DNA of 27,116 nucleotides from IMG/VR virus record IMGVR_UViG_3300025131_000338, positions 1 through 27,116 of that record; one strand, 5' to 3'. Below are positions 3,774-16,885 of the stretch, piece after piece. Below the pieces are notes generated by a model, which worked only from the letters and a program-made list of their open reading frames with translations, did no database searches and had not been told where the DNA came from. Position 1 is the first letter of the stretch. Each line of letters begins with the position of its first letter. Origin of the DNA: a virus (taxonomy: Duplodnaviria > Caudoviricetes). A program made the position numbers and the translations under genes.

Positions 3774-4769
3774 TTACTTTAATCCCCCCACTTTAGTATA
3801 TCCATCTTTATCAATCGTTTTGGTATTTTTGGTTTGTTTTATTTTATTATTTTTTTTCCCACGATTAACTTCCTCTGAAATCAAGCCCCTTTGGTGAGGG
3901 GTACGAGAATTAACCACGGCTGATTTGGATGGGAAGAAGGTAGGAACATAATCTGCTGTTACAGGAGTACAGTCTGCCAGTGAAAATGTTGTAGGAAGGG
4001 GTTTTTTAACCTTGGGTTTACCAAGCTCAAATCCATCATAAATTCGTTTAAAAATTGCATAGATATCTCGAACCAGGTTAGCATCAAATTCATATTCAAA
4101 AGGCTCACATACGCTTTTTGGCGGACTGTCACCTTTCCAGTCTTTTTTTGCCCAAATTATACCCATCCGATCTACCGGGTTATCAGGATACATATCATTC
4201 CAGAGCATACTATACATTGTGAGCTGTGCCTGATTTTTTAGTACACCTTTAACATTCCGTGAAGTTTTTATATCTAACATCCAGGTGTCTTTTCCTATTT
4301 TACAGACTAAATCACAACGGCCCATAAATGGATATATAAACTCGTTAGCTTTCATTTTAAGTGAATATAAAAGCATCTCTTTATCTATCACTTTAGGTGA
4401 TTGCTTTTCCCAAAATGATATCAGTGAAAGTAGTGCCTTACGTATTTCAAGTGTTACTTGAGATGATGGATAGTAATTCCTACCAGGAACAATCTCCAGG
4501 GGATTTTCAGGTATAACTATTTCTCCCCCATCAAGTATCTTATCCCAGGCATCGTGAACGAAAGTGCCAATTTCACTGGCGGCTCCGTTATGTTGTATAT
4601 GCCTTTGATAATCCCCCTGGGATTGTTCTAAAAACCATTTGAAGAGAAACTCCTCAAGTGGAAGCCCAAAACGTAGAACTGTTGTTACGGAAGGGAAGAA
4701 TATACCTTTAGATACCTCATATACTCTTCCATAACTGCTATATGGTACTATTCTAGGATAGTCATCCAT
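3774..4769 (-). CDS. PD-(D/E)XK exonuclease (Cas4/RecB-like phage recombination nuclease)
   Basis: 'PSVTTVL', 'GTFVH', 'GRCDL', 'LDIKTS', 'QLTMY' motifs; adjacent to the annealase. Confidence 0.85.
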   Translation of the reverse strand: MDDYPRIVPYSSYGRVYEVSKGIFFPSVTTVLRFGLPLEEFLFKWFLEQSQGDYQRHIQHNGAASEIGTFVHDAWDKILDGGEIVIPENPLEIVPGRNYYPSSQVTLEIRKALLSLISFWEKQSPKVIDKEMLLYSLKMKANEFIYPFMGRCDLVCKIGKDTWMLDIKTSRNVKGVLKNQAQLTMYSMLWNDMYPDNPVDRMGIIWAKKDWKGDSPPKSVCEPFEYEFDANLVRDIYAIFKRIYDGFELGKPKVKKPLPTTFSLADCTPVTADYVPTFFPSKSAVVNSRTPHQRGLISEEVNRGKKNNKIKQTKNTKTIDKDGYTKVGGLK

Positions 4770-5453
4770 TTAAGCAAGCACACCATTGTTGTTTTGCATT
4801 TGGTGTCTTACTATAAAACGTAAGTTGGTTAAATGCTTGTTCTGATCTTTAGTGGGATTCTTTAATACACCAAAGCGTTTTCCTGCTTTTAAAAGCTCCT
4901 CACCGTCATTTAAATAAACTTCCCCATAAGATTTACCCTTACTGCCACCACAAGGTATTATTGATTTTAATACCCCCTCAATGGTTAAGTCGGGTTCTTC
5001 TTCAAAGGTTTGGGACTCCAGCTTTGGATCGGCATCATCGCCTGGAGAAGCATCAGAGGCAGGAGCCAGAGTCCCGGTATTTTCTGGGAAACTTTCCCCA
5101 GCATATATATAGTGCCCTAATCCAAACATTGCCATAGCTTTAACCAAACATCTCATTCTGGCAGTATTAATACTCCAAGCATCAGGATTAGGAATTGATT
5201 TATTATTGTAATCTGTTACAGCTAGCCACATAGGTAGTGAATGTCCATCAACAGTTAACACACACGATACTTCCATACTACCATCTGAAAAGAATTTATC
5301 TTCCTGCCAAATATAACTTGCGACCTCAGTGTTCTCAACTAAAGTTTTCCAGGCCCAAGTCCAGGAAAGATAAGTATAACCATTTTTATCTTTAGAATGC
5401 TCATTTACATCTATAGCTGAAAGTTTATCAAAAGTTTGTTTGAATGTGTTCAT
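4770..5453 (-). CDS. sak: Sak (Rad52-like, DUF1071) single-strand annealing protein
   Basis: 'DVNEH..DKNGYTYLSWTWAW...MWLAVTDYNNKSI.NP....INTARMRCLVKAMAMFGLGHYIYAGE'; AAGGAG SD. Confidence 0.92.
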   Translation of the reverse strand: MNTFKQTFDKLSAIDVNEHSKDKNGYTYLSWTWAWKTLVENTEVASYIWQEDKFFSDGSMEVSCVLTVDGHSLPMWLAVTDYNNKSIPNPDAWSINTARMRCLVKAMAMFGLGHYIYAGESFPENTGTLAPASDASPGDDADPKLESQTFEEEPDLTIEGVLKSIIPCGGSKGKSYGEVYLNDGEELLKAGKRFGVLKNPTKDQNKHLTNLRFIVRHQMQNNNGVLA

Positions 5454-5634
5454 ATGCTTCTCCTTTATTGTATAAGTTATGCTTAATTATGGCTTTAATT
5501 TATGGTAAGTTATGGTATATAACAAATTATTATTTAATTATTTATGATTTTTAATAATTTACTTGGTTTTAATTATGATATGATTATAATTTTCCCCATT
5601 GGTCGGTATTAGGTTGTAAACTTAAATTGCCACT
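5454..5634. promoter_or_regulatory. Divergent lysis/lysogeny control region
   Basis: Very AT-rich spacer between divergent sak and repressor. TTGGTT(5563)-16 nt-TATAAT(5585-5590) candidate rightward promoter; TTATG repeats at 5477, 5487, 5500, 5510, 5542, 5573. Confidence 0.7.
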
Positions 5635-6369
5635 ATGGGGAAGCTTATGATTATCGGAAAATCTATATTAGATGCAATTGAGCAATCGGACTTGTCAGAT
5701 AAAAAAATCTGTAATAAGGTTGGTGTATCTCAGCCTGCTTTCTATAAGTGGAAGACTGGCCAAACTAAAACAATGCGCAGGTCCAATGTAAATCTTCTTG
5801 CTACGGTATTAGACAAGGAAGTTATTTATTTGGATGGTGGAACTGTGGAGTTTAAAGATATCAATATAGAAATAGAGGAGCTTAATATGACAACAACAAA
5901 TGGCGATGTTCTAGTTAAAACTATAGACAACCTCTGGGCACAGATAGAAAAGAAGGATAAAGCACTTCTCAGGAAGGATAAAATTATCGCTGATTGGAAG
6001 GAAAAGTACGAGAACGAATGTGGGTGTAATTCTGAACACGTAGAACACGCACCACTATTAGATTTAAACAAAATACAAGCTTGTATAAGTAGGAAAGAAG
6101 CTATTTTTACAGATGTAACCCTTAAATATGCTCAACTACTTGGATATAGTTCTCGCTTTGAACTTATTGGCAATTCTTGGCTGATGGTTACTCCAAAAGA
6201 AATGCAAGAAGCATACCTAAATGCACCAGAGAGAGAGGTCGGGAGCACTGTACCCTATCCTGAGATCGAATTAGTAAAAAAGGATGGTAAACGTGTTGTA
6301 GTTAGTGCAAATAGTTATTATCCTGCAAAGGATATTAATATTATAGATGTTAAGGTTATAAAAAAATAG
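5635..6369 (+). CDS. XRE-HTH repressor fused to coiled coil and C-terminal PAS domain (start may be 5647)
   Basis: HTH 'LSDKKICNKVGVSQPAFYKWKTG'; PAS hallmarks 'FTDVTLKYAQLLGYSSRFELIGNSWLMVTP...EIELVKKDGKRVVV'; CI position next to attP/int. Confidence 0.8.
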   Translation: MGKLMIIGKSILDAIEQSDLSDKKICNKVGVSQPAFYKWKTGQTKTMRRSNVNLLATVLDKEVIYLDGGTVEFKDINIEIEELNMTTTNGDVLVKTIDNLWAQIEKKDKALLRKDKIIADWKEKYENECGCNSEHVEHAPLLDLNKIQACISRKEAIFTDVTLKYAQLLGYSSRFELIGNSWLMVTPKEMQEAYLNAPEREVGSTVPYPEIELVKKDGKRVVVSANSYYPAKDINIIDVKVIKK

Positions 6370-6418
6370 AATGAAAAGAATTGAGCAATATTTTAAATCG
6401 CTTTTAAATGAAGTATGA

Positions 6419-6648
6419 AAAAAGACACAAAAAAGACACAACACGGCAAAAGCCGGAGCACAAATAAGGAATTTCTCACGACTCTGGTCGTGAAAATGAC
6501 GACTGGAGAGTTGGCAGAGTGGTAATGCAGCGGATTGCTAATTTACCCTTTGTTATTTCTCTCCTCGTGAGAACCCTTTAAAACCCCTGGTTTTTGTCTC
6601 ATTTTAGGCACAAGGAGAAGCAAAATGAGATTATATAAAAGGCACAAC
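6419..6648. other. attP region with integrase arm-type repeats
   Basis: AAAAGACACAA tandem copies at ~6420-6441; related AGGCACAA at ~6606 and AAAAGGCACAAC at 6637-6648. They flank a tRNA-derived core immediately upstream of int. Confidence 0.7.
6505..6541 (+). pseudogene. 5' half of tRNA-Ser(GCT), probable attP core
   Basis: GGAGAGT-TG-GCA GAGTGGTAA TGC-A-GCGGA-TT GCT AA gives the acceptor 5' strand, D-arm, anticodon 5' stem and loop. Similarity ends just after the loop; no T-arm or CCA. Confidence 0.8.
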
Positions 6649-7620
6649 ATATGGTATATGGATGAACGTATTCAAGGTAAGCGTTTACGTAAAGCCCTAT
6701 CCTCAGATAAAAAGAAAGCACAGGCACTCGCTGAAGCATACGTGCTTAATTTCCTACAAAACAAAAACACAATTATAAAACAATACTCATTTATTGATGA
6801 GGTTAACAGATTTATGTTTCGTCACTACGATATTAAAAATGCCTTTAAAGGTAAACATAAATCCCAGGGCAACGCTTCACACGCTCTATCATCCCTAAAA
6901 CGGCTGTATACGACCATATCTAAGGAATATGTGGACGAGTATAGGGTAAGGGATATTGAGGGTTATATAGCCACCCTGCAAGGCACTATGAAAAATAAAC
7001 AAATCAACAGGCATATTGTTCATTTTAGAAGATTCTTTGATTATTGTGTTAAAAATGAGAAAGTGAAAAACAATATTGCTTCTCGTGTGGATCGCTTGAA
7101 AGAAGAGGTACATACACCCCACTCATTTAAAAAAGAAGAAATTGACCTTATATTATCTAAGGCTGGCGTGTTTCATAAATTCTTTGTATTCCTGCTTGAA
7201 ACTGGACTTAGACCAACTGATGCCTGGGATTTAACCCAGGACAATTTTATAAAAGAAAATGATGGAATGTTTATGAGGGTATGGATGCATAAACCTGAGA
7301 AATGGGTTACTGTGCCAGTTAACGAAACTGTACAGAAAATAGTGGAGTCTTCTGGGGATATTTTATTCTTCTGGGCTAAACTGAAGTCAGCACGTAGAAC
7401 ACCGCTTAAATTTATAAACGAACTGCTAGGTAGGGATTATTGTAAGAAAAACAAGGTTTCTCTACACTCATTTAGACATACGTATGCTAAGAAGGCTTTA
7501 AGAAAAGGAATGCCAAAGGATATGCTACAACAATTCTTAGGGCATTCTAGTGTTAAAACTACTGAGATATATGCAAACGAAGTACCAAAAGAAATACTTC
7601 GGAACTACCTACTTAGATAA
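6625..7620 (+). CDS. int: Tyrosine recombinase (phage integrase)
   Basis: Catalytic motifs 'TGLR', 'HSFRHT', 'LGHSSVKTTEIY'; N-terminal arm-binding-like beta domain; AAGGAG SD. Confidence 0.96.
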   Translation: MRLYKRHNIWYMDERIQGKRLRKALSSDKKKAQALAEAYVLNFLQNKNTIIKQYSFIDEVNRFMFRHYDIKNAFKGKHKSQGNASHALSSLKRLYTTISKEYVDEYRVRDIEGYIATLQGTMKNKQINRHIVHFRRFFDYCVKNEKVKNNIASRVDRLKEEVHTPHSFKKEEIDLILSKAGVFHKFFVFLLETGLRPTDAWDLTQDNFIKENDGMFMRVWMHKPEKWVTVPVNETVQKIVESSGDILFFWAKLKSARRTPLKFINELLGRDYCKKNKVSLHSFRHTYAKKALRKGMPKDMLQQFLGHSSVKTTEIYANEVPKEILRNYLLR

Positions 7621-8357: not shown

Positions 8358-8812
8358 TATTCAATTCCCATATTAGCAGCTATGTAGTGATCCACGGAAC
8401 CTTTGCCGCCAGCATTGTAGTGTTTGAGCCAATAAGCAGCACGTCCCGGCATCGTGCCAGGGATTGCTCCAGGCTTTCTACGGTAGTGTATCCTACAGAA
8501 TGCTGCCGCCAGGGCAATATTTGAAAACACACAAAATGGTATGCTTTCTTCAATCAGGCCCAACTTATACATAGCTTGAATATATGGTTTGCGATATAAA
8601 ATAAAATTGTCCCAAATATCCTGACATACCCAATTTTCAATTTGCCAAAATGAGAGTGCCGGTCCCCCACCTATCTGTTCCAGGTGACGGTATCCACTCT
8701 CTGCCATTCCTGTCTCGAACACCAGGTAACGTGCTTCCTCTGTATTTGGAATACCTATATCCTCAAGTTGGTTTAATACGTCATCTATAATATCTTTTAT
8801 GGATTCAATCAT
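8357..8812 (-). CDS. Putative endolysin (lysozyme/transglycosylase-like)
   Basis: 'TGMAESGY..LEQIGGGPALSFWQIE...CRIHY...AAYWLKHYN..GKG' with ES catalytic and G/S-x-x-Q motifs. Confidence 0.75.
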   Translation of the reverse strand: MIESIKDIIDDVLNQLEDIGIPNTEEARYLVFETGMAESGYRHLEQIGGGPALSFWQIENWVCQDIWDNFILYRKPYIQAMYKLGLIEESIPFCVFSNIALAAAFCRIHYRRKPGAIPGTMPGRAAYWLKHYNAGGKGSVDHYIAANMGIE

Positions 8813-11800
8813 CAGTATAAATCATATAGGTTATCAGCCGTTCTGTAAGAGATATATCCCCTATCTTCAGCTATACCTATATACCTTTCAAATTTTACAA
8901 TTTCATCTTCATCAAGTTGTCGTGCTCCAAATATTTTATCTCTGAACCTCGTTCCCTTGGCTATGCTTTTATATCTATCCAATTCCTGCTCAACAACCTT
9001 TTTACTTCCACCACCAGACCACCAGTACCAGGCTTTACCACCATATGGAAGGAAGTTTACAGATTTGATATTTTTAAATGCATCTGCCATAGTTTTTTCC
9101 TCATCGAATGCAGCCTTGAAAATGGAAACTCCATCACGCCATATCTTTGTTGCCATACTCCACTGCGGTCCGAGCACCTGTTTTGTGACTGCTTCTATTG
9201 GTCCATGCTGTCTGACTTGCCATGCCATAAACCTTGAGCCACCAGCTAATCTGAACATATTATCAATCACGATATCATCCAGGTGTATTTCTCTGCCCAT
9301 AATTAAATCCTTCAATGCATCAGCAGTAGCGTTAGCCAGGACAAAATAAGTCCCAAGCTTAATCATATTTGTAAAACCTTCTGCCGCCTGCTTAGGATTG
9401 CCTGATTTCATATTATCAATTGCTTCATTTCTAAATACATCTAGCTGTTTTATTGTGAAGGTTTTTAACTGGTAGAATATCCGATTATATCCTGTAGAAT
9501 TATTCAGGTAACTCTGGGGCATTTCTGATAGTGCTGCTGGCTGGAAATCAAGTAGTGTATTAAACGCTAGCATCTTCACGTTTTCTGTCATTTTTCCTGA
9601 CTTGAGGTCTTTCATCACCTGGGGCGTTTCATCGCCAAAAACCTCACGTAGCTTGGCTTTTAACTTGGGATTATTGCGTTTAGCCTGGTATTGATACTTG
9701 TCAATAGCAGCGTTTATTAAAGTTTCCTTACCGAGTGCATCTATTGCTGTAAGTCCAATTGATTTGAATAGGAGGTCAACTGCTGTGGCAGTTTTAGATT
9801 GTGTGTCAAACTCTGCTGCAATTTTTTCAATACCAATATCTTTCTTGGTGAGTTTGCTTTGCCGTGCAATGGACCTTGCCATAGCTTTTCCAGTACGATA
9901 CCATCCAGCTTCATATAAAGACCAGGCTAAATCACCAAACTGTGTTATTGCAGAGGTTGGGGAGCCCATTGTGGCTATGTAAGCAATATTTTTTGCAGTA
10001 GCCACACCCTTAGCATTTGCACCTCGCTGGAACCGGGACCTTAGAACGCTTAATACTTCTTCCTGCTGCTCACGTTTAATCTCACCATCCTCAACAAGCT
10101 TGGCTACATAATTACCAATACTATCAGATTTGTCTGTACCTTTACCAAAATAGTTATTTACTGCAATGGCTTCATTCATACCATCTATATACCCAGTGAG
10201 GGCTGCTCCTGGGTCTAAATAAAATTGGTTAATATTCTGGTTAATCACAAGGCTACGTTTCTTTGTATGTCCTGGTTTACCGCCCTTACCTTTAGGACGC
10301 ATAATCATTTGATTAACAATTGCACCTTTTTCATCTATTGTTAGATCACGCCCTTGCTTTACCTGCTCATCAGCAATAGCCTTCTCAATAGCACCCTGGG
10401 TTTTATTATCCAGGGAAGCCATCAGACCGTCATAATTATCAACCTTTCGTGGGAAATACTCATCTATATATCCCATTTCCAGGCCAGCATCCTTTGCACG
10501 TTTATATGTGTCTTCCAATAATTCCCTGACAGCATTCCATTCAGCTTCAATATCATTTTCCAGAGCGATAGTATATGCCATATCAGCATCTGAATTTTTA
10601 AGGGCTAAATCCATTTTATTGTAATCTTCATCAGATAGTTTGCGAAGCTTTTTCAAAAACGGCTCTACCTTGGTACGGTCATCCCGTATTTTAGTAAGAA
10701 ATCCAAATTCAAAATCTCTGAGTGCTTTCTTTAATTTTGGATTGATACGTTTTAACCTGGTAGATATTGGTATCATAACCTGTGACCATAAGCCAGGCTC
10801 TGGAGTTGGTTTCTTTTTCTTAGCTTCTTCCTGGTATACTTCTTCTGACACTAACTGGAATGATTCACCAGTTTCTTTTGGTTTTTGATTGAATACTGAT
10901 TTAATTTGTTCTGGACGAAATGTTATGTATACTGTACTGTCTTTAGTTTTAGAAGTTGGAAAACCACTTGATGGGTCTACCTCCCAAGCTTCAATACCAT
11001 CATAACCAATAGATTTTAAATAGGTCTGTAAATCTGGATTATTATAAAAATATTGAAACAAATTTTTATCAATATTTTCCATAAAATCTTGTTGATCCTT
11101 ACTCTCAAAAGATGCTAATTCATCTTTTAAATAATAATCAAAAATATTTACACTTTTAGGTAATTTTATCCCAGTAGAGTCTTCTATTAATTTAATAAAT
11201 TGACTTGGTGTTAATTTATTATTTAAGTTTGTTTCTAATAGAAGTGGATTGGTGAGATTTATATATGATGGAATTACTTGGGCATTTCCACCTCCAAAAA
11301 ATTCTCTATTCCTAGCATATCCACTTGCTACTTCTGGTGAGGGAGTGAAGAAAAATGGGTCTGATTCAGTCAAGTGTTCATCTCCAAAACGACTAAAAGT
11401 TTTTGCTGTACCGTGATACACAACCAGAGGATCACCCTTGTCATCTACGACCTTGGTATCTTTGAAGTATTCTTTTTGCTTAGGTGCTAACTGAAATGAT
11501 TCACGGCCCTTCTCAATATCTTTCTGTAGTAGAGATACATCACCCTCACCAGCTTCAATCAGTTTAGGTATAAGCTTTGAATTATCTTTATTGAGCCAGA
11601 AGTTAAGTGTCTGCATCATCAGCCAGGCTCCCTTCTTTTTATTTTCCTCAATAGAAAGCTTGTCACGAAAATCGTTAAAATCAATGGGCTTTGGTAGCCT
11701 TTGATAATTTTCAAATAACACCTCTGCTGGATATACTTCGTGCTTAATAATTCTATCATCACCAGTACGAATTTCCTTAAATCTTCCAACACCAACAATC

Positions 11801-14517
11801 TTGCCACCAGTTTTATCAAATTCAGACTCACCTATATCCCTGGCAACCTGAATCAAACTAACCTTGCCAAGCTTTGCAGCTTCCTGCATAACAGATGTCT
11901 TTTTCTGAAGCCGTCTTGGCTTTTCATCGTAGATTGCCTGACCTTCCTTAATAAACTTATTGGTCTGACGAATCTTATGATTTTTAATTAGTTCACGTTT
12001 TAAAGCTTCCTGATATACCGGGTTGTGTTTCATTGCAGCTTGGAGTTTTGGATATACCACAACAGCAACAGTTTTAAAACCCTGGTCAGCTAAATTATTC
12101 ATTCGTGTAGCACCACCTTTAGATAGCTGCCACCCACTCCCCTTTTCCATATATTTCTCAGGATACCTATAACCAGTAGGATGGTCATTTCCATCCATAT
12201 CAACACTAACAGCATCCCCTCCTATAAATACAACACCAGCATCGTCAGGATATTTATCCATAACAACTTCATCTTCATATTCTAATAGTGGTTCTTTGGG
12301 AGCTAACTGGAATGATTCTTCAGATTTTATCCCTTCACCAGATTTCCAAAATTTTGATGGGTCTTCTGCTAAATCTAAAACCTGTACTCTACCTTTTTGT
12401 ATACCATGTTTAGATGTTAGAACCTGTAATACCTTATCAGCTTCTTTTTGTGATTTTGCCTTAGTGTAAAGCAGCTCTTCTGAAGTCTTACCAGGAGGGA
12501 TGCCCCAAATTGCAAATTCCTTCTCAGTATCTAACTGGAATGATTCTGCATCTGGAGTAACATCAGCTTCTTCAACTCTTCCAAATCCAGCATCCTCATA
12601 CATATTGCGAATCTCTGGATCGAGAGTTGATTTATTAAACATATCGTTGAAATAATTCTTGGCCCTTCTGTATATATTAAGGATTGTGGAATCGGTGTCT
12701 AGTTGTTCACCAAAATAATAGGATGTTCCTTCCTTCTCAAATAATTCCTGGGATGTAAGCTTTCCACCTTCCTGCATATATTCACTAAAATATTTATCCC
12801 ACACCTGTTGGCTAGATTCAGATAGTTGTCTAAAATGATTTCCATAAAATTCTTCAACAACAGTATTGGCATTTGCACCCTTGTATAGGTTAATCAATAT
12901 TTTGCCGTTATCTTCCAAGGTACTACCAAGTACACGTGCTTTTTCAGTATCAGACTTTAAACCTTCACCAGCAAAAAACTCTTCAGGATCAATACCCTCT
13001 GCACGCTTTTGATCTGCTGTTATCTCCCTAACTTCTTCTGAGAATTGGAGAACTGATTTTTCTTCAAATACTTCAGGGTTTTGTTTAGCAAGTTTCTCTG
13101 CCATATCCAAAGTCTGTGTCTCGTGTACTCCTTCCTCTCTCGCACGTATAATCTCCTGTCCAACGGTTGTTTTATTAAACTTAGCCTGCTGGAGTGCTTT
13201 GTTTTGGGAAACAGCTATATTTATTGCACCAGATGGAGCAGCAGTCCCAACCTCACCAAATGCTTCAGATAATACTGCCGCAGCATTTATTTCTTTCCCA
13301 GCTACAACAGAACCTGCAACCTCACCACCAGCACCAAGTGCCATTTGGAGTGGTACTTCTGCTATTTTACCAACCTTGCCAGCCACACCAGCACTAAGCA
13401 TATCTATCAGAGCAATTGGTATTCCTTTTTTAAGACCAGTTGTCCTGGCTTCTGACATCAGCTCTTCATTTTTAAATGCTTCATATAATTCATCAGGATT
13501 AGTTACATCCACGCCATGCTCACCCATTGTTTCTAATATCATTCCAGAATATTCCATAGATAGAGATGCAATTCCAGCAGCTGTATATAAACCATATGTA
13601 CCACCAGTTACTGCACCAGGTATTGCCCCGGCTCCCATAGTGGTTCCACCACCAATTGCAGCACCCACACCAATACCAGCAGGAACTGTAGCTATAGCAG
13701 TTTGAGCATAAGCTGGTAAGAATTGAGATATTGATTCGGCTGTGATTTGACCTATAACTTCAAATGGGTCTGTGATTAATCTTTTTAAGTTACCCTTCTG
13801 AAATTCGTCATATGCTTCAGACGATTTAATTCCCTGGATTTCAGCTTGAAGTATGGCGATTTCTTCCACACGCTGTTCTGGGTCCATCCCAAGCTCATTT
13901 GCCATCATTTTACGGGTAGTCTCATAATTCTTGTAACCAGATTTGAAACGGTTAACAAAACTCTGCCATTGGCCTACATATTTATTTCGTGCCAAAGTCG
14001 GGGATTTAAAAGGTATTTTCTTAGGCTCTATTACCTCACCAGTACCTAAATTGTAAATACGGTATCCATCAGCTTCAAGTGCACCTTTCTTTTGAATATC
14101 AGCAGACCAATTCCCCATTTCTTCAGGATTCATACCTCCTGGCATTTTATCATCCATCATAAGTAGATTCATTTTTTTCAGATCATCTACAATATGCAAA
14201 CTACCATCTGACTTAACCTGTACAGCTCCCAGGGATTCCATTTGTCCTGGCTGAATCATACGTGTACGTTTTTGTTTGAATAAGCCTGGGTCTAAGGGTT
14301 CTTCCTGGAGAAATTGCTCAACCAATCCAGTAGGCTTTTCGGGCTGCTCTTGAACCTCAATTGGTTGAAATTGCTGTTGATTCCGTTTATATAATTCGGA
14401 GATAGCTTCCTGGGACATATAGTCCAGATCATTCCACCAGTCATTCAATATCGGATCAATAGGGTTGACCTGGTAACGCCCATACATTTCCAGTTGTGCT
14501 TCTGACCTACTTGGCAT
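8812..14517 (-). CDS. Giant internal virion / DNA-ejection polyvalent protein with ADP-ribosyltransferase-like module (1901 aa)
   Basis: Last of three genes after the tail block. Gly/Ala-rich hydrophobic segment; ART-PolyVal-like motifs 'VVDDKGDPLVVYHGT..FFFT..A.GYA..GYDG..FRPEQIKS'; helical C-terminal region with YFPR motif. Confidence 0.8.
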   Translation of the reverse strand: MPSRSEAQLEMYGRYQVNPIDPILNDWWNDLDYMSQEAISELYKRNQQQFQPIEVQEQPEKPTGLVEQFLQEEPLDPGLFKQKRTRMIQPGQMESLGAVQVKSDGSLHIVDDLKKMNLLMMDDKMPGGMNPEEMGNWSADIQKKGALEADGYRIYNLGTGEVIEPKKIPFKSPTLARNKYVGQWQSFVNRFKSGYKNYETTRKMMANELGMDPEQRVEEIAILQAEIQGIKSSEAYDEFQKGNLKRLITDPFEVIGQITAESISQFLPAYAQTAIATVPAGIGVGAAIGGGTTMGAGAIPGAVTGGTYGLYTAAGIASLSMEYSGMILETMGEHGVDVTNPDELYEAFKNEELMSEARTTGLKKGIPIALIDMLSAGVAGKVGKIAEVPLQMALGAGGEVAGSVVAGKEINAAAVLSEAFGEVGTAAPSGAINIAVSQNKALQQAKFNKTTVGQEIIRAREEGVHETQTLDMAEKLAKQNPEVFEEKSVLQFSEEVREITADQKRAEGIDPEEFFAGEGLKSDTEKARVLGSTLEDNGKILINLYKGANANTVVEEFYGNHFRQLSESSQQVWDKYFSEYMQEGGKLTSQELFEKEGTSYYFGEQLDTDSTILNIYRRAKNYFNDMFNKSTLDPEIRNMYEDAGFGRVEEADVTPDAESFQLDTEKEFAIWGIPPGKTSEELLYTKAKSQKEADKVLQVLTSKHGIQKGRVQVLDLAEDPSKFWKSGEGIKSEESFQLAPKEPLLEYEDEVVMDKYPDDAGVVFIGGDAVSVDMDGNDHPTGYRYPEKYMEKGSGWQLSKGGATRMNNLADQGFKTVAVVVYPKLQAAMKHNPVYQEALKRELIKNHKIRQTNKFIKEGQAIYDEKPRRLQKKTSVMQEAAKLGKVSLIQVARDIGESEFDKTGGKIVGVGRFKEIRTGDDRIIKHEVYPAEVLFENYQRLPKPIDFNDFRDKLSIEENKKKGAWLMMQTLNFWLNKDNSKLIPKLIEAGEGDVSLLQKDIEKGRESFQLAPKQKEYFKDTKVVDDKGDPLVVYHGTAKTFSRFGDEHLTESDPFFFTPSPEVASGYARNREFFGGGNAQVIPSYINLTNPLLLETNLNNKLTPSQFIKLIEDSTGIKLPKSVNIFDYYLKDELASFESKDQQDFMENIDKNLFQYFYNNPDLQTYLKSIGYDGIEAWEVDPSSGFPTSKTKDSTVYITFRPEQIKSVFNQKPKETGESFQLVSEEVYQEEAKKKKPTPEPGLWSQVMIPISTRLKRINPKLKKALRDFEFGFLTKIRDDRTKVEPFLKKLRKLSDEDYNKMDLALKNSDADMAYTIALENDIEAEWNAVRELLEDTYKRAKDAGLEMGYIDEYFPRKVDNYDGLMASLDNKTQGAIEKAIADEQVKQGRDLTIDEKGAIVNQMIMRPKGKGGKPGHTKKRSLVINQNINQFYLDPGAALTGYIDGMNEAIAVNNYFGKGTDKSDSIGNYVAKLVEDGEIKREQQEEVLSVLRSRFQRGANAKGVATAKNIAYIATMGSPTSAITQFGDLAWSLYEAGWYRTGKAMARSIARQSKLTKKDIGIEKIAAEFDTQSKTATAVDLLFKSIGLTAIDALGKETLINAAIDKYQYQAKRNNPKLKAKLREVFGDETPQVMKDLKSGKMTENVKMLAFNTLLDFQPAALSEMPQSYLNNSTGYNRIFYQLKTFTIKQLDVFRNEAIDNMKSGNPKQAAEGFTNMIKLGTYFVLANATADALKDLIMGREIHLDDIVIDNMFRLAGGSRFMAWQVRQHGPIEAVTKQVLGPQWSMATKIWRDGVSIFKAAFDEEKTMADAFKNIKSVNFLPYGGKAWYWWSGGGSKKVVEQELDRYKSIAKGTRFRDKIFGARQLDEDEIVKFERYIGIAEDRGYISYRTADNLYDLY
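10851..12546. repeat. Four dispersed in-frame 16-bp direct repeats encoding ESFQL
   Basis: CTAACTGGAATGATTC at 10851-10866, 12303-12318 and 12531-12546; one-mismatch copy CTAACTGAAATGATTC at 11487-11502. Confidence 0.95.
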
Positions 14518-15295: not shown

Positions 15296-16885
15296 TTAAC
15301 TATATTGATCGTCTATCGAATCTGCATACGCCTGCCAGTCCGTTGGTTTGTTAGATGAAAAATCCCAGTCTGTATCAGTATCAGCTACTGTTCCAGCAAG
15401 GTCCCACGCTGCACCCATGTAATCAGGTTTATATAACCCAGATGTGTCTACGGGAGCTTGACCTGGTATTCCCAAAACCGGAGCTGCACCTTGGGGTCCT
15501 AGAACCGGAGCTGCACCCTGAACCCCTTGAACTGGAGCTGCACCCTGATAACCTCTAGTTGGAGCCGCACCTTGATATCCCATAACTGGAGCTGCACCTT
15601 GGTAACCCATAATTGGTGCTGCACCCTGGAATCCTTTAGTTGGATCAGCAATGCCTGCTATATTCAATAGCGATTGACGTTTTCTTCCCTCAATAGACAG
15701 ACCCATAGTATCCAAACTTGACTGTGCCTGTCTCTTATGCTCAATTTGTGCTCTCTGATTTTTTATAGCTAAATCACGAGCTGTTTCTGAAAGCGATTTA
15801 AGCGTATCCTTATCTGTTTGTCTGACAAGTTCACGGGCAACTATTGACCCTTCTAAACCTGTTCCCACAATATGCCCGGAAGTTCTTTGCTGTGCATCAG
15901 CCCCCTGCTGACGGATTGTAGCCAATGCCCGATTTTGTTCTTCTTTTAAAATTCTCTTTAATTCTGGATCACCTTCTTCGGCAATTTTCCTCTGCCTGTC
16001 CATAATTTCCTGTTCAAGTGTACTAACTTCACCAGCTTGGCTGAAGGCTGTACGAAGATTATCAGCTCTATCTTTCTCTGACTGAAACTTATCTTCTAAA
16101 TAATCGCCCTCTCTTGCATATGCATCTTGTTGTGACTGATATTGATCAGATAAAAATTCACCTTCCCTTCCATATGCGTCCTGTTGTGACTGGAACGTAT
16201 CTTTTAAAAATTCACCCTGTCTACCATATGCGTCTTGCTCTGATTCAAACCTATCGTCTAAATATTCTCCCTCTCTCTCATACGCACCTAGCTGTGATTG
16301 ATATACATCTGCTAAATATTCTCCTTGTGCTGTATAAGCTGCTGACTGACTGTCAAACACCTCCATATTATACTTACCACGAGCATCATAGGCTATTTTC
16401 TGAGCATCATATACTCTTTGCTGATAATCTACAGTATTATTAAAATGATCTTTGGCTGCGTTATATTGATCCTCTGCTATTTTTCCTTCTTCCTTGGCCT
16501 GTTCAATTGCTGAAAGCGAACTGTATACAGTACCGCCAACCTTGATAGCAGCTCCCACATTTCCACCTGTGACAACAAGAGTAATACCTGCTGCTGCAAG
16601 TGATGCTAGTTCTGTACCATGCGGTTTAACATATTCATTCCAATTATCCTTCATCTTTTGAGATGGGCCGTGAATACCGTGATCGTGCCATAGGTGATAT
16701 TCAGACATACCTGTTTGTGGGTTTACAGTGCCAGCACCTTGTGATTTAACTATTATCTCACCAAGACGGCCCCTACGGTCAATAAGCTTGGCTTCCTGGG
16801 GATTTACGTGTGCAGGCTTACCGTCAACCTTCCGTATCTCGGTATCGCCAAATCTTCCTTTTTTAGCTAAATCTTTCTTATTCAT
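15296..16885 (-). CDS. Probable DNA-ejection (pilot) protein with two repeat arrays
   Basis: N-terminal 'LAKKGRFGDT...AHVNPQEA...GAGTVNPQTGMSEY' motif typical of podovirus internal proteins, then a hydrophobic segment, 18-aa repeats and 9-aa repeats. Confidence 0.7.
   Translation of the reverse strand: MNKKDLAKKGRFGDTEIRKVDGKPAHVNPQEAKLIDRRGRLGEIIVKSQGAGTVNPQTGMSEYHLWHDHGIHGPSQKMKDNWNEYVKPHGTELASLAAAGITLVVTGGNVGAAIKVGGTVYSSLSAIEQAKEEGKIAEDQYNAAKDHFNNTVDYQQRVYDAQKIAYDARGKYNMEVFDSQSAAYTAQGEYLADVYQSQLGAYEREGEYLDDRFESEQDAYGRQGEFLKDTFQSQQDAYGREGEFLSDQYQSQQDAYAREGDYLEDKFQSEKDRADNLRTAFSQAGEVSTLEQEIMDRQRKIAEEGDPELKRILKEEQNRALATIRQQGADAQQRTSGHIVGTGLEGSIVARELVRQTDKDTLKSLSETARDLAIKNQRAQIEHKRQAQSSLDTMGLSIEGRKRQSLLNIAGIADPTKGFQGAAPIMGYQGAAPVMGYQGAAPTRGYQGAAPVQGVQGAAPVLGPQGAAPVLGIPGQAPVDTSGLYKPDYMGAAWDLAGTVADTDTDWDFSSNKPTDWQAYADSIDDQYS
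15473..15634 (-). repeat. 27-bp coding tandem repeat, 6 copies of GxQGAAPxx (degenerate 7th to 15446)
   Basis: GFQGAAPIM GYQGAAPVM GYQGAAPTR GYQGAAPVQ GVQGAAPVL GPQGAAPVL. Confidence 0.95.
16079..16402 (-). repeat. 54-bp coding tandem repeat, 6 copies of an 18-aa unit
   Basis: QKIAYDARGKYNMEVFDS QSAAYTAQGEYLADVYQS QLGAYEREGEYLDDRFES EQDAYGRQGEFLKDTFQS QQDAYGREGEFLSDQYQS QQDAYAREGDYLEDKFQS. Confidence 0.92.

Follow-up and report, generated by a model that had tools for sequence, protein, structure and literature searches.

A probable CI-type repressor with an exchangeable PAS domain in phages likely to infect marine Marinimicrobia

Lambda CI-type repressors (HTH_3 plus Peptidase_S24, PF00717) join an XRE-type N-terminal domain to an autocleavage domain with a Ser-Lys dyad, and their genes lie divergently beside the early lytic operon and near the integrase. 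According to PMC3406030, the MmyB/MltR regulators, which have an N-terminal XRE HTH and a C-terminal PAS-related domain (MLTR_LBD), are mostly chromosomal proteins of actinomycetes and proposed activators, and the structure of MltR contains bound myristic acid. In phage VP882, the VqmA-phage/Qtip/cI system ties a phage PAS domain to the lysis-lysogeny decision; as described in PMC8284805, VqmA has its PAS domain first and its HTH at the C-terminus, and is an activator that works via a separate antirepressor and repressor. The one-component heme-PAS switch FG214 is chromosomal and has an HTH, a helix and then a PAS domain, which holds heme via His156 and His175 (bioRxiv 10.64898/2026.03.15.711900; PDB 10jx). 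The Gifsy phage repressors GfoR and GtgR are not inactivated by self-cleavage and work with antirepressors, and PAS is not mentioned in the abstract of that report (PMC3121763).

The protein described here resembles CI in its XRE-type N-domain and in the position of its gene, but it has a coil and a PAS domain in place of S24; the autocleavage domain and a cro gene in the gap are absent. Unlike the MmyB/MltR proteins it is phage-borne, with a canonical PAS domain after a long coil; MLTR_LBD was found in none of 32 family sequences at E<=0.01, and MltR was not among the fold matches listed. Compared with VqmA the domain order is reversed and the PAS domain is fused to the protein in the CI slot, which supports the one-protein design, unlike that of VP882, that an earlier note on this DNA had proposed. 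Unlike FG214 it has no His in its PAS domain, and no antirepressor such as those that work with GfoR and GtgR was identified among the scanned ORFs of the present contig. A search of PMC open-access full texts and bioRxiv, a coverage that leaves out most subscription journals, found among the papers listed no description of an XRE-PAS repressor in the CI slot of a phage. The feature is real, and that this probable CI-type repressor has an exchangeable PAS part is a new finding.

The DNA analysed (the window) is the entire record IMGVR_UViG_3300025131_000338, 27,116 bases from a Caudoviricetes virus. Its minus strand carries genes for Sak, an exonuclease, a replication initiator and NinG on the left (Pfam/PHROG matches), and capsid, adaptor, tail-fibre and internal virion genes on the right. 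Neither terminase nor portal was found among the scanned ORFs of the record, so the phage genome is incomplete. On the plus strand just two ORFs have family matches, the HTH-coil-PAS gene and the tyrosine integrase (Table 1); the former points away from the lytic operon, and its neighbours are a tRNA-Ser att-like site and the integrase. Its true start is probably the ATG at 5647, because this codon is preceded by the putative ribosome site GGGGAAGC, which resembles the GGAGAAGC before Sak, the integrase and the repressors of relatives. This motif is common to the phage group, and stands in the window at 5637-5644 (GGGGAAGC, repressor) and at 6613-6620 and 5457-5464 (GGAGAAGC, integrase and Sak).

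Table 1. Features of the repressor locus (positions in the 27,116-base window)
Feature	Positions	Strand	Basis or remark
Sak, a single-strand annealing protein; opens the divergent lytic operon	4770..5453	-	PF06378, E 4e-35
AT-rich (24% GC) divergent control region	5454..5646	.	presumed promoters and operators; no Cro-sized ORF
HTH-coil-PAS gene in the CI slot	5635..6369	+	244 aa; 240 aa from the likely true start, ATG 5647
XRE/Cro-CI-type HTH with trailing beta-hairpin (aa 5-76)	5647..5862	+	PHROG 8, model, hhalign to the CI N-domain of L001
Heptad helix, 39 residues (aa 90-128)	5902..6018	+	model and heptad pattern
Exchanged cassette, from the linker through PAS and the stop to about 20 nt beyond	6012..6391	+	identity to L130 ends at 6011 and resumes at 6373; identity to L129 spans 5867-6391
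Cys/His linker (aa 129-139)	6019..6051	+	pLDDT <50 over CGCNSEH..H; not family-wide
PAS domain (aa 140-241)	6052..6357	+	ESM Atlas, model, Foldseek, VIA
Recombination scar	6371..6418	+	about 20 L129-type bases past the stop, joined to the last codons of an L130-type PAS gene
Candidate attP core	6500..6542	+	holds the 5' half of tRNA-Ser(GCT), which takes up 6505-6542 and runs through the anticodon loop
Tyrosine integrase	6625..7620	+	PF00589, E 8e-16; PHROG 1

Some other features of the record are given here for completeness. About 200 bases at 3777-3976, which are not in the related contigs L001 and L127, make the exonuclease ORF longer (331 instead of 269 aa). A virion-region protein of 1901 aa (8812-14517, minus strand) has an ART-PolyVal ADP-ribosyltransferase domain at aa 1025-1213, and a 529-aa protein (15296-16885, minus strand) has two tandem repeat blocks, one of a repeat of about 11 aa followed by one of a 9-aa QGAAP-type repeat. 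In a near-identical copy of the integrase (L126:3351-4345) the gene is frameshifted, possibly by a sequencing error.

To define the family, 1.84 billion representative sequences were searched, which gave 108 matches at E<=0.001. Thirty of these (244-301 aa, matching from the N-terminus) were aligned with the query and P0003; the sequences excluded were mostly long multi-PAS proteins or HTH-only matches. The 32-row alignment, which has one invariant and three nearly invariant columns, was used for AlphaFold2 (mean pLDDT 85, pTM 0.45). The build of HTH, coil and PAS that the earlier note had read at 5635-6369 was confirmed by this model together with Foldseek, VIA, ESM Atlas and PHROG comparisons, although the relative placement of the domains is not fixed by the model because the linkers are of low confidence and the pTM is 0.45. 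The HTH matched PHROG 8 (E 1.5e-9) and was modelled as four helices (aa 9-17, 22-29, 33-41 and 49-58). Pfam gave a weak HTH_26 match on the 244-aa protein alone (E 0.043); among the 32 rows it detected 25 families in all, with HTH_3 in 19, PAS_3 in 11 and S24 in none. The helix that follows has heptads I97/I104/L111/I118/Y125 and L93/L100/K107/K114/W121 and is likely a coil through which the protein would dimerise. A homodimer prediction scored 0.52, with one control at 0.46, and speaks neither for nor against a dimer. The Cys/His patch pointed out in the earlier note does lie at aa 129-138 (CGCNSEH..H), but it is not a family feature, since CxC occurs in only 4 of 42 rows, and we rejected it as a family-wide sensor for the same reason. 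In the present allele it may still have a role, as CxC plus His recurs in both cassettes found on the same coil and in P0010.

The structural comparison of the C-terminal part that the note had called for predicted a PAS fold. The model has a five-stranded antiparallel sheet with flanking helices (strands at aa 147-152, 157-161, 205-214, 220-231 and 234-241; ten-residue pLDDT means 86-97). Foldseek against the PDB gave 201 matches at E<=0.001, and those listed were all PAS domains or PAS-containing proteins, with FG214 at the top (E 2.4e-6, 13-15% identity). VIA gave PAS with a Z of 13.9 (rmsd 2.4 A over 104 aa), the top rows of ESM Atlas were PAS (0.96-0.97), and phmmer matched multi-PAS proteins. 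Pfam did not detect PAS on the 244-aa protein itself, and a PDB sequence search with the protein found nothing significant. The PAS hallmark motif is present and reads LLGYSSRFELIG, with three residues between S and E rather than the two of the original reading. The absence of S24 also stood: PF00717 was found in 0/32 family rows, the C-terminal domain is predicted to fold as PAS, and the best tblastn match of the sister phage's S24 domain in the 27,116-base record was only 42 aa long (E 0.17).

As for what the PAS domain might bind, no His is found within aa 140-241, and with it the His ligand of the FixL/FG214 type is absent. In LOV domains the motif with the photoactive Cys is GxNCRFLQ; the corresponding stretch here is GNSWLMV, and no such Cys was found. 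Since the PAS domain has neither the His nor the LOV cysteine motif, heme or LOV sensing of known type is unlikely for the present allele, which narrows the claim that the protein reads a signal directly by making His-bound heme and LOV-type flavin improbable.

The CI position proposed from the sequence was likewise borne out. The closest other phage in IMG/VR (L001), which has the same gene order and att region and an integrase 88% identical, holds an HTH-S24 repressor in the same slot, and its HTH is homologous to the family profile (hhalign probability 96.8%). A second CI-like gene was not detected in the scanned ORFs of the record, and the control region (5454-5646) has no Cro-sized ORF, the longest stop-free stretch being 32 codons. 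Eight further viral loci hold members of the family: the integrase is next to the gene in four, the contig ends at the gene in two, and the integrase is not adjacent in two (L165 and L166). At four of the eight, the gene points away from a Sak or ERF gene. From this we infer, strongly, that the HTH-coil-PAS protein is the master repressor of the phage. The inference is weakened by the two loci with no adjacent integrase and by the operator search, in which the best repeats of the control region were equalled by 8 and 13 of 40 shuffles. A promoter scan yielded 5 sites, about the number expected (5.2). For the pattern TAAKTTATG, which was picked after looking, three of the four exact matches in the record fall in 5473-5514.

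Comparisons with described phages gave no cultured model. A BFVD match from Cellulophaga phage phi19:1 (taken as gp108 from its length of 240 aa) was rejected, as its gene has lysis-region neighbours and Pfam detects no HTH in the protein. P0001 matched nothing in the annotated phage collection, and P0055 had HTH-only matches in 8 of its records. The locus L002 matched via an unrelated gene only, and was used just as a lambdoid CI for comparison.

The strongest feature of the locus, which went beyond the view of the earlier note, is that the PAS part is an exchangeable cassette, as shown at the DNA level. The contig L130 is 99.2% identical to 3996-6011 of the window, diverges exactly past the coil and rejoins from 6373, so that the same HTH and coil carry a PAS domain only 26% identical. 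Conversely, L129 shares coil and PAS with the window at 97% identity (5867-6391), and its HTH, control region, att-like site and integrase are all different. The simplest reading of these sequences, and of the scar past the stop codon (Table 1), is that an L130-type phage acquired its PAS domain from an L129-type donor. The breaks recur in separately assembled runs (6011 with both alleles in X4, 6391 in X2 and 5876 in X10), which argues against assembly chimeras; the junction contigs were drawn from 4 of the 22 listed runs, which may share a sampling campaign with the present record. The same independence of the two parts was seen in protein identities of HTH and PAS, which were 100% and 26% for P0001/P0004, 40% and 96% for P0001/P0003, and 39% and 82% for P0018/L161. 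In a PAS tree of 22 chosen rows out of 42, AU tests rejected two HTH-defined groups (p 0.008 and 2e-12), the groups having been picked after earlier trees were seen. Close alleles differ at 8 replacement sites and 2 silent ones in the PAS domain, compared with 1 and 3, respectively, in the HTH; five of the eight fall at aa 193-207, and as evidence this is weak. Mosaic exchange is common in phages. The exchange of this cassette need not be adaptive, and HTH domains likewise vary on a constant S24 domain. As the exchanged sequences suggest, these phages may trade the cue that ends dormancy. Among the HTH-S24 repressors of L001 and P0135-P0137, the S24 part is less variable than the HTH domains.

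The att site points to the host. The longest match of the candidate attP core is an exact one of 43 bp to a Marinimicrobia genome (MED589; G001/L007). Exact matches of 38-43 bp were found in 15 of 401 Marinimicrobia-phylum genomes; a single family with 42 genomes accounts for 14 of these and also holds the four closest chromosomal homologs. The half tRNA was not detected by ARAGORN or Rfam. A 37-nt stretch of it also occurs in many gut Alphaproteobacteria, which make up most of the 120 loci listed. We set these aside as hosts: the 20 runs with the sequence are marine, the longest match is to Marinimicrobia, and the family profile at 1e-8 found 0 of 201 genomes of the alphaproteobacterial order concerned (a search without a positive control of its own). 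At the same threshold it found 22 of the 401 Marinimicrobia-phylum genomes, four of them only through PAS parts of long proteins. From these matches the host is likely a member of Marinimicrobia, although no integrated prophage of this phage was found in the 401 genomes. No RNA run was among the runs listed with the sequence. Integration would put an intact tRNA downstream of the repressor gene, and a host tRNA promoter would then face the integrase. The att core lies between an inverted repeat at 6473-6496 and a related copy at 6559-6573, both of which L001 has too; they may be integrase arm sites or a terminator. L129 and L164 appear to have the 3' part of a tRNA and a different integrase. 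Among phage-like contigs in Marinimicrobia-phylum genomes, L143 has an HTH-coil-PAS gene followed directly by an integrase, and L135 has an HTH-coil-only gene between an excisionase-like gene and an integrase.

Chromosomal HTH-linker-PAS genes of Marinimicrobia have housekeeping and metabolic genes as neighbours, the latter including those for a Rieske oxygenase, a member of the glucosamine-6-phosphate isomerase family, shikimate kinase and biotin carboxylase; one-component sensors often adjoin metabolic genes. In three chromosomal copies (L132, L133 and L134 in G342, G227 and G157) A-AAA-AAG plus a stop interrupts the gene where coil and PAS meet, and the PAS domain runs on in the -1 frame with 32 synonymous and 15 replacement codons, so that the out-of-frame PAS is under apparent purifying selection. 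A fourth copy (L131 in G011) has one extra A and is in frame. These sequences suggest a programmed -1 frameshift, which would yield both PAS-less and PAS-bearing regulators. No conserved stimulatory hairpin was found at the A-AAA-AAG site.

The mechanism that we tentatively favour is that the HTH-coil-PAS fusion acts as master repressor and that its exchangeable PAS domain binds a small molecule present inside the host cell, which would loosen repression with no need for self-cleavage. The coil would dimerise the protein, and the pair of HTHs would bind within 5454-5646 and block the leftward promoter of the lytic operon, whose first gene is Sak. Occupancy of the PAS domain would shift the coil and thus change the spacing of the two HTHs, as has been proposed for the XRE-PAS protein MltR. 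A cassette swap would then bring a new cue with operator and immunity unchanged, and an HTH swap would bring new immunity with the cue unchanged. We prefer PAS as an input domain because a coil that would serve dimerisation is already present, because HTH-coil-only relatives exist (L135, L137, L139, L142 and L154) and PAS thus looks optional for the DNA-binding unit, because each subtype keeps its distinct residues, and because the host homologs resemble one-component sensors. The sensory role is weakened because no cofactor motif was found in the present allele, because the slot accepts a non-catalytic C-terminal domain, to which docking or oligomerisation is equally suited, and because PAS domains also mediate protein-protein contacts (PMC10468136) and the PAS of VqmA is required for its dimerisation (PMC8284805). 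Antirepressor docking and a purely structural role are close rivals, which sequence cannot separate from sensing.

That the PAS domain of a master repressor is instead a docking surface, for an antirepressor of the phage or for a host protein, is somewhat unlikely. A swap would then change which antirepressors act, those of co-resident phages included, and a LexA-controlled antirepressor could wire the switch to SOS. Such LexA-controlled, cross-acting antirepressors of non-cleaved repressors are known (PMC3121763), and they can silence a repressor that is not cleaved; with only part of the phage genome on the contig, the SOS independence that had been concluded from the absence of S24 does not follow. 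The other repressors of the lineage bear on the same question. All four S24-type repressors found for it (L001:5141-5776 and P0135-P0137) have Gly or Ala at the position of lambda catalytic Lys192, which was located from PDB titles, and keep the serine and the Ala-Gly site, which we take to correspond to the catalytic Ser149 and the cleavage site of lambda CI. These repressors are thus probably unable to cleave themselves, so that they must have another off-switch and the slot tolerates a non-catalytic C-terminal domain; it is not clear, then, that PAS replaced a working SOS sensor, as the note had supposed. The C-terminal domain in this slot may generally be a docking or oligomerisation module. 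The rapid swapping and the replacement-rich change would also fit an arms race between proteins. Against docking, a PHROGs scan of 34 ORF entries of the window found no antirepressor family, although it could easily miss small ones, and the chromosomal homologs beside metabolic genes suggest that the fold arrived with a sensory use.

It is more doubtful that the PAS domain of the master repressor is purely structural and provides dimer-dimer contacts for cooperative binding like the C-domain of CI, in which case any compatible domain would suffice and induction would be spontaneous or by dilution. The diversity of the family lends itself to this explanation: the roughly 30 relatives fall into five PAS subtypes (grouped by tree) of about 20-25% identity, and homologous HTHs carry one of these, a dead S24 domain or no C-terminal domain at all. 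The missing cofactor motif would also be accounted for. However, a heptad coil is already there for dimerisation, every subtype retains its own conserved Trp, Arg, Asp or His residues, and the conserved frameshift would yield forms with and without PAS; the last two points suggest a regulatory role. Finally, the protein is very improbably a captured host-type regulator of the integrase or of host genes only, for which the chromosomal relatives in Marinimicrobia, the two loci with no adjacent integrase and the incomplete contig could be cited, since the gene fills the exact slot of the sister's CI, the HTHs are homologous and no second CI-like gene was seen among the scanned ORFs.

What induces marine prophages besides DNA damage is an open question. 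If the repressor reads a host molecule directly, the circuit would be simpler than that of VP882 or arbitrium. We consider it possible, though rather speculative, that marine temperate phages of Marinimicrobia use a one-protein sensor-repressor in which immunity depends on the HTH and the host cue for lysis on the PAS cassette, and that by trading cassettes they make the induction signal mobile and independent of DNA damage. The loci provide natural controls, namely two unrelated PAS domains that go with one HTH and operator region, one PAS domain that occurs with two HTHs, and an S24 repressor in the slot, and this natural allele set could be compared in an E. coli reporter with no need to culture the host. 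Even under the rival explanations, these repressors swap their C-terminal domains at a fixed border, and the finding points to temperate phages of an uncultured ocean phylum.
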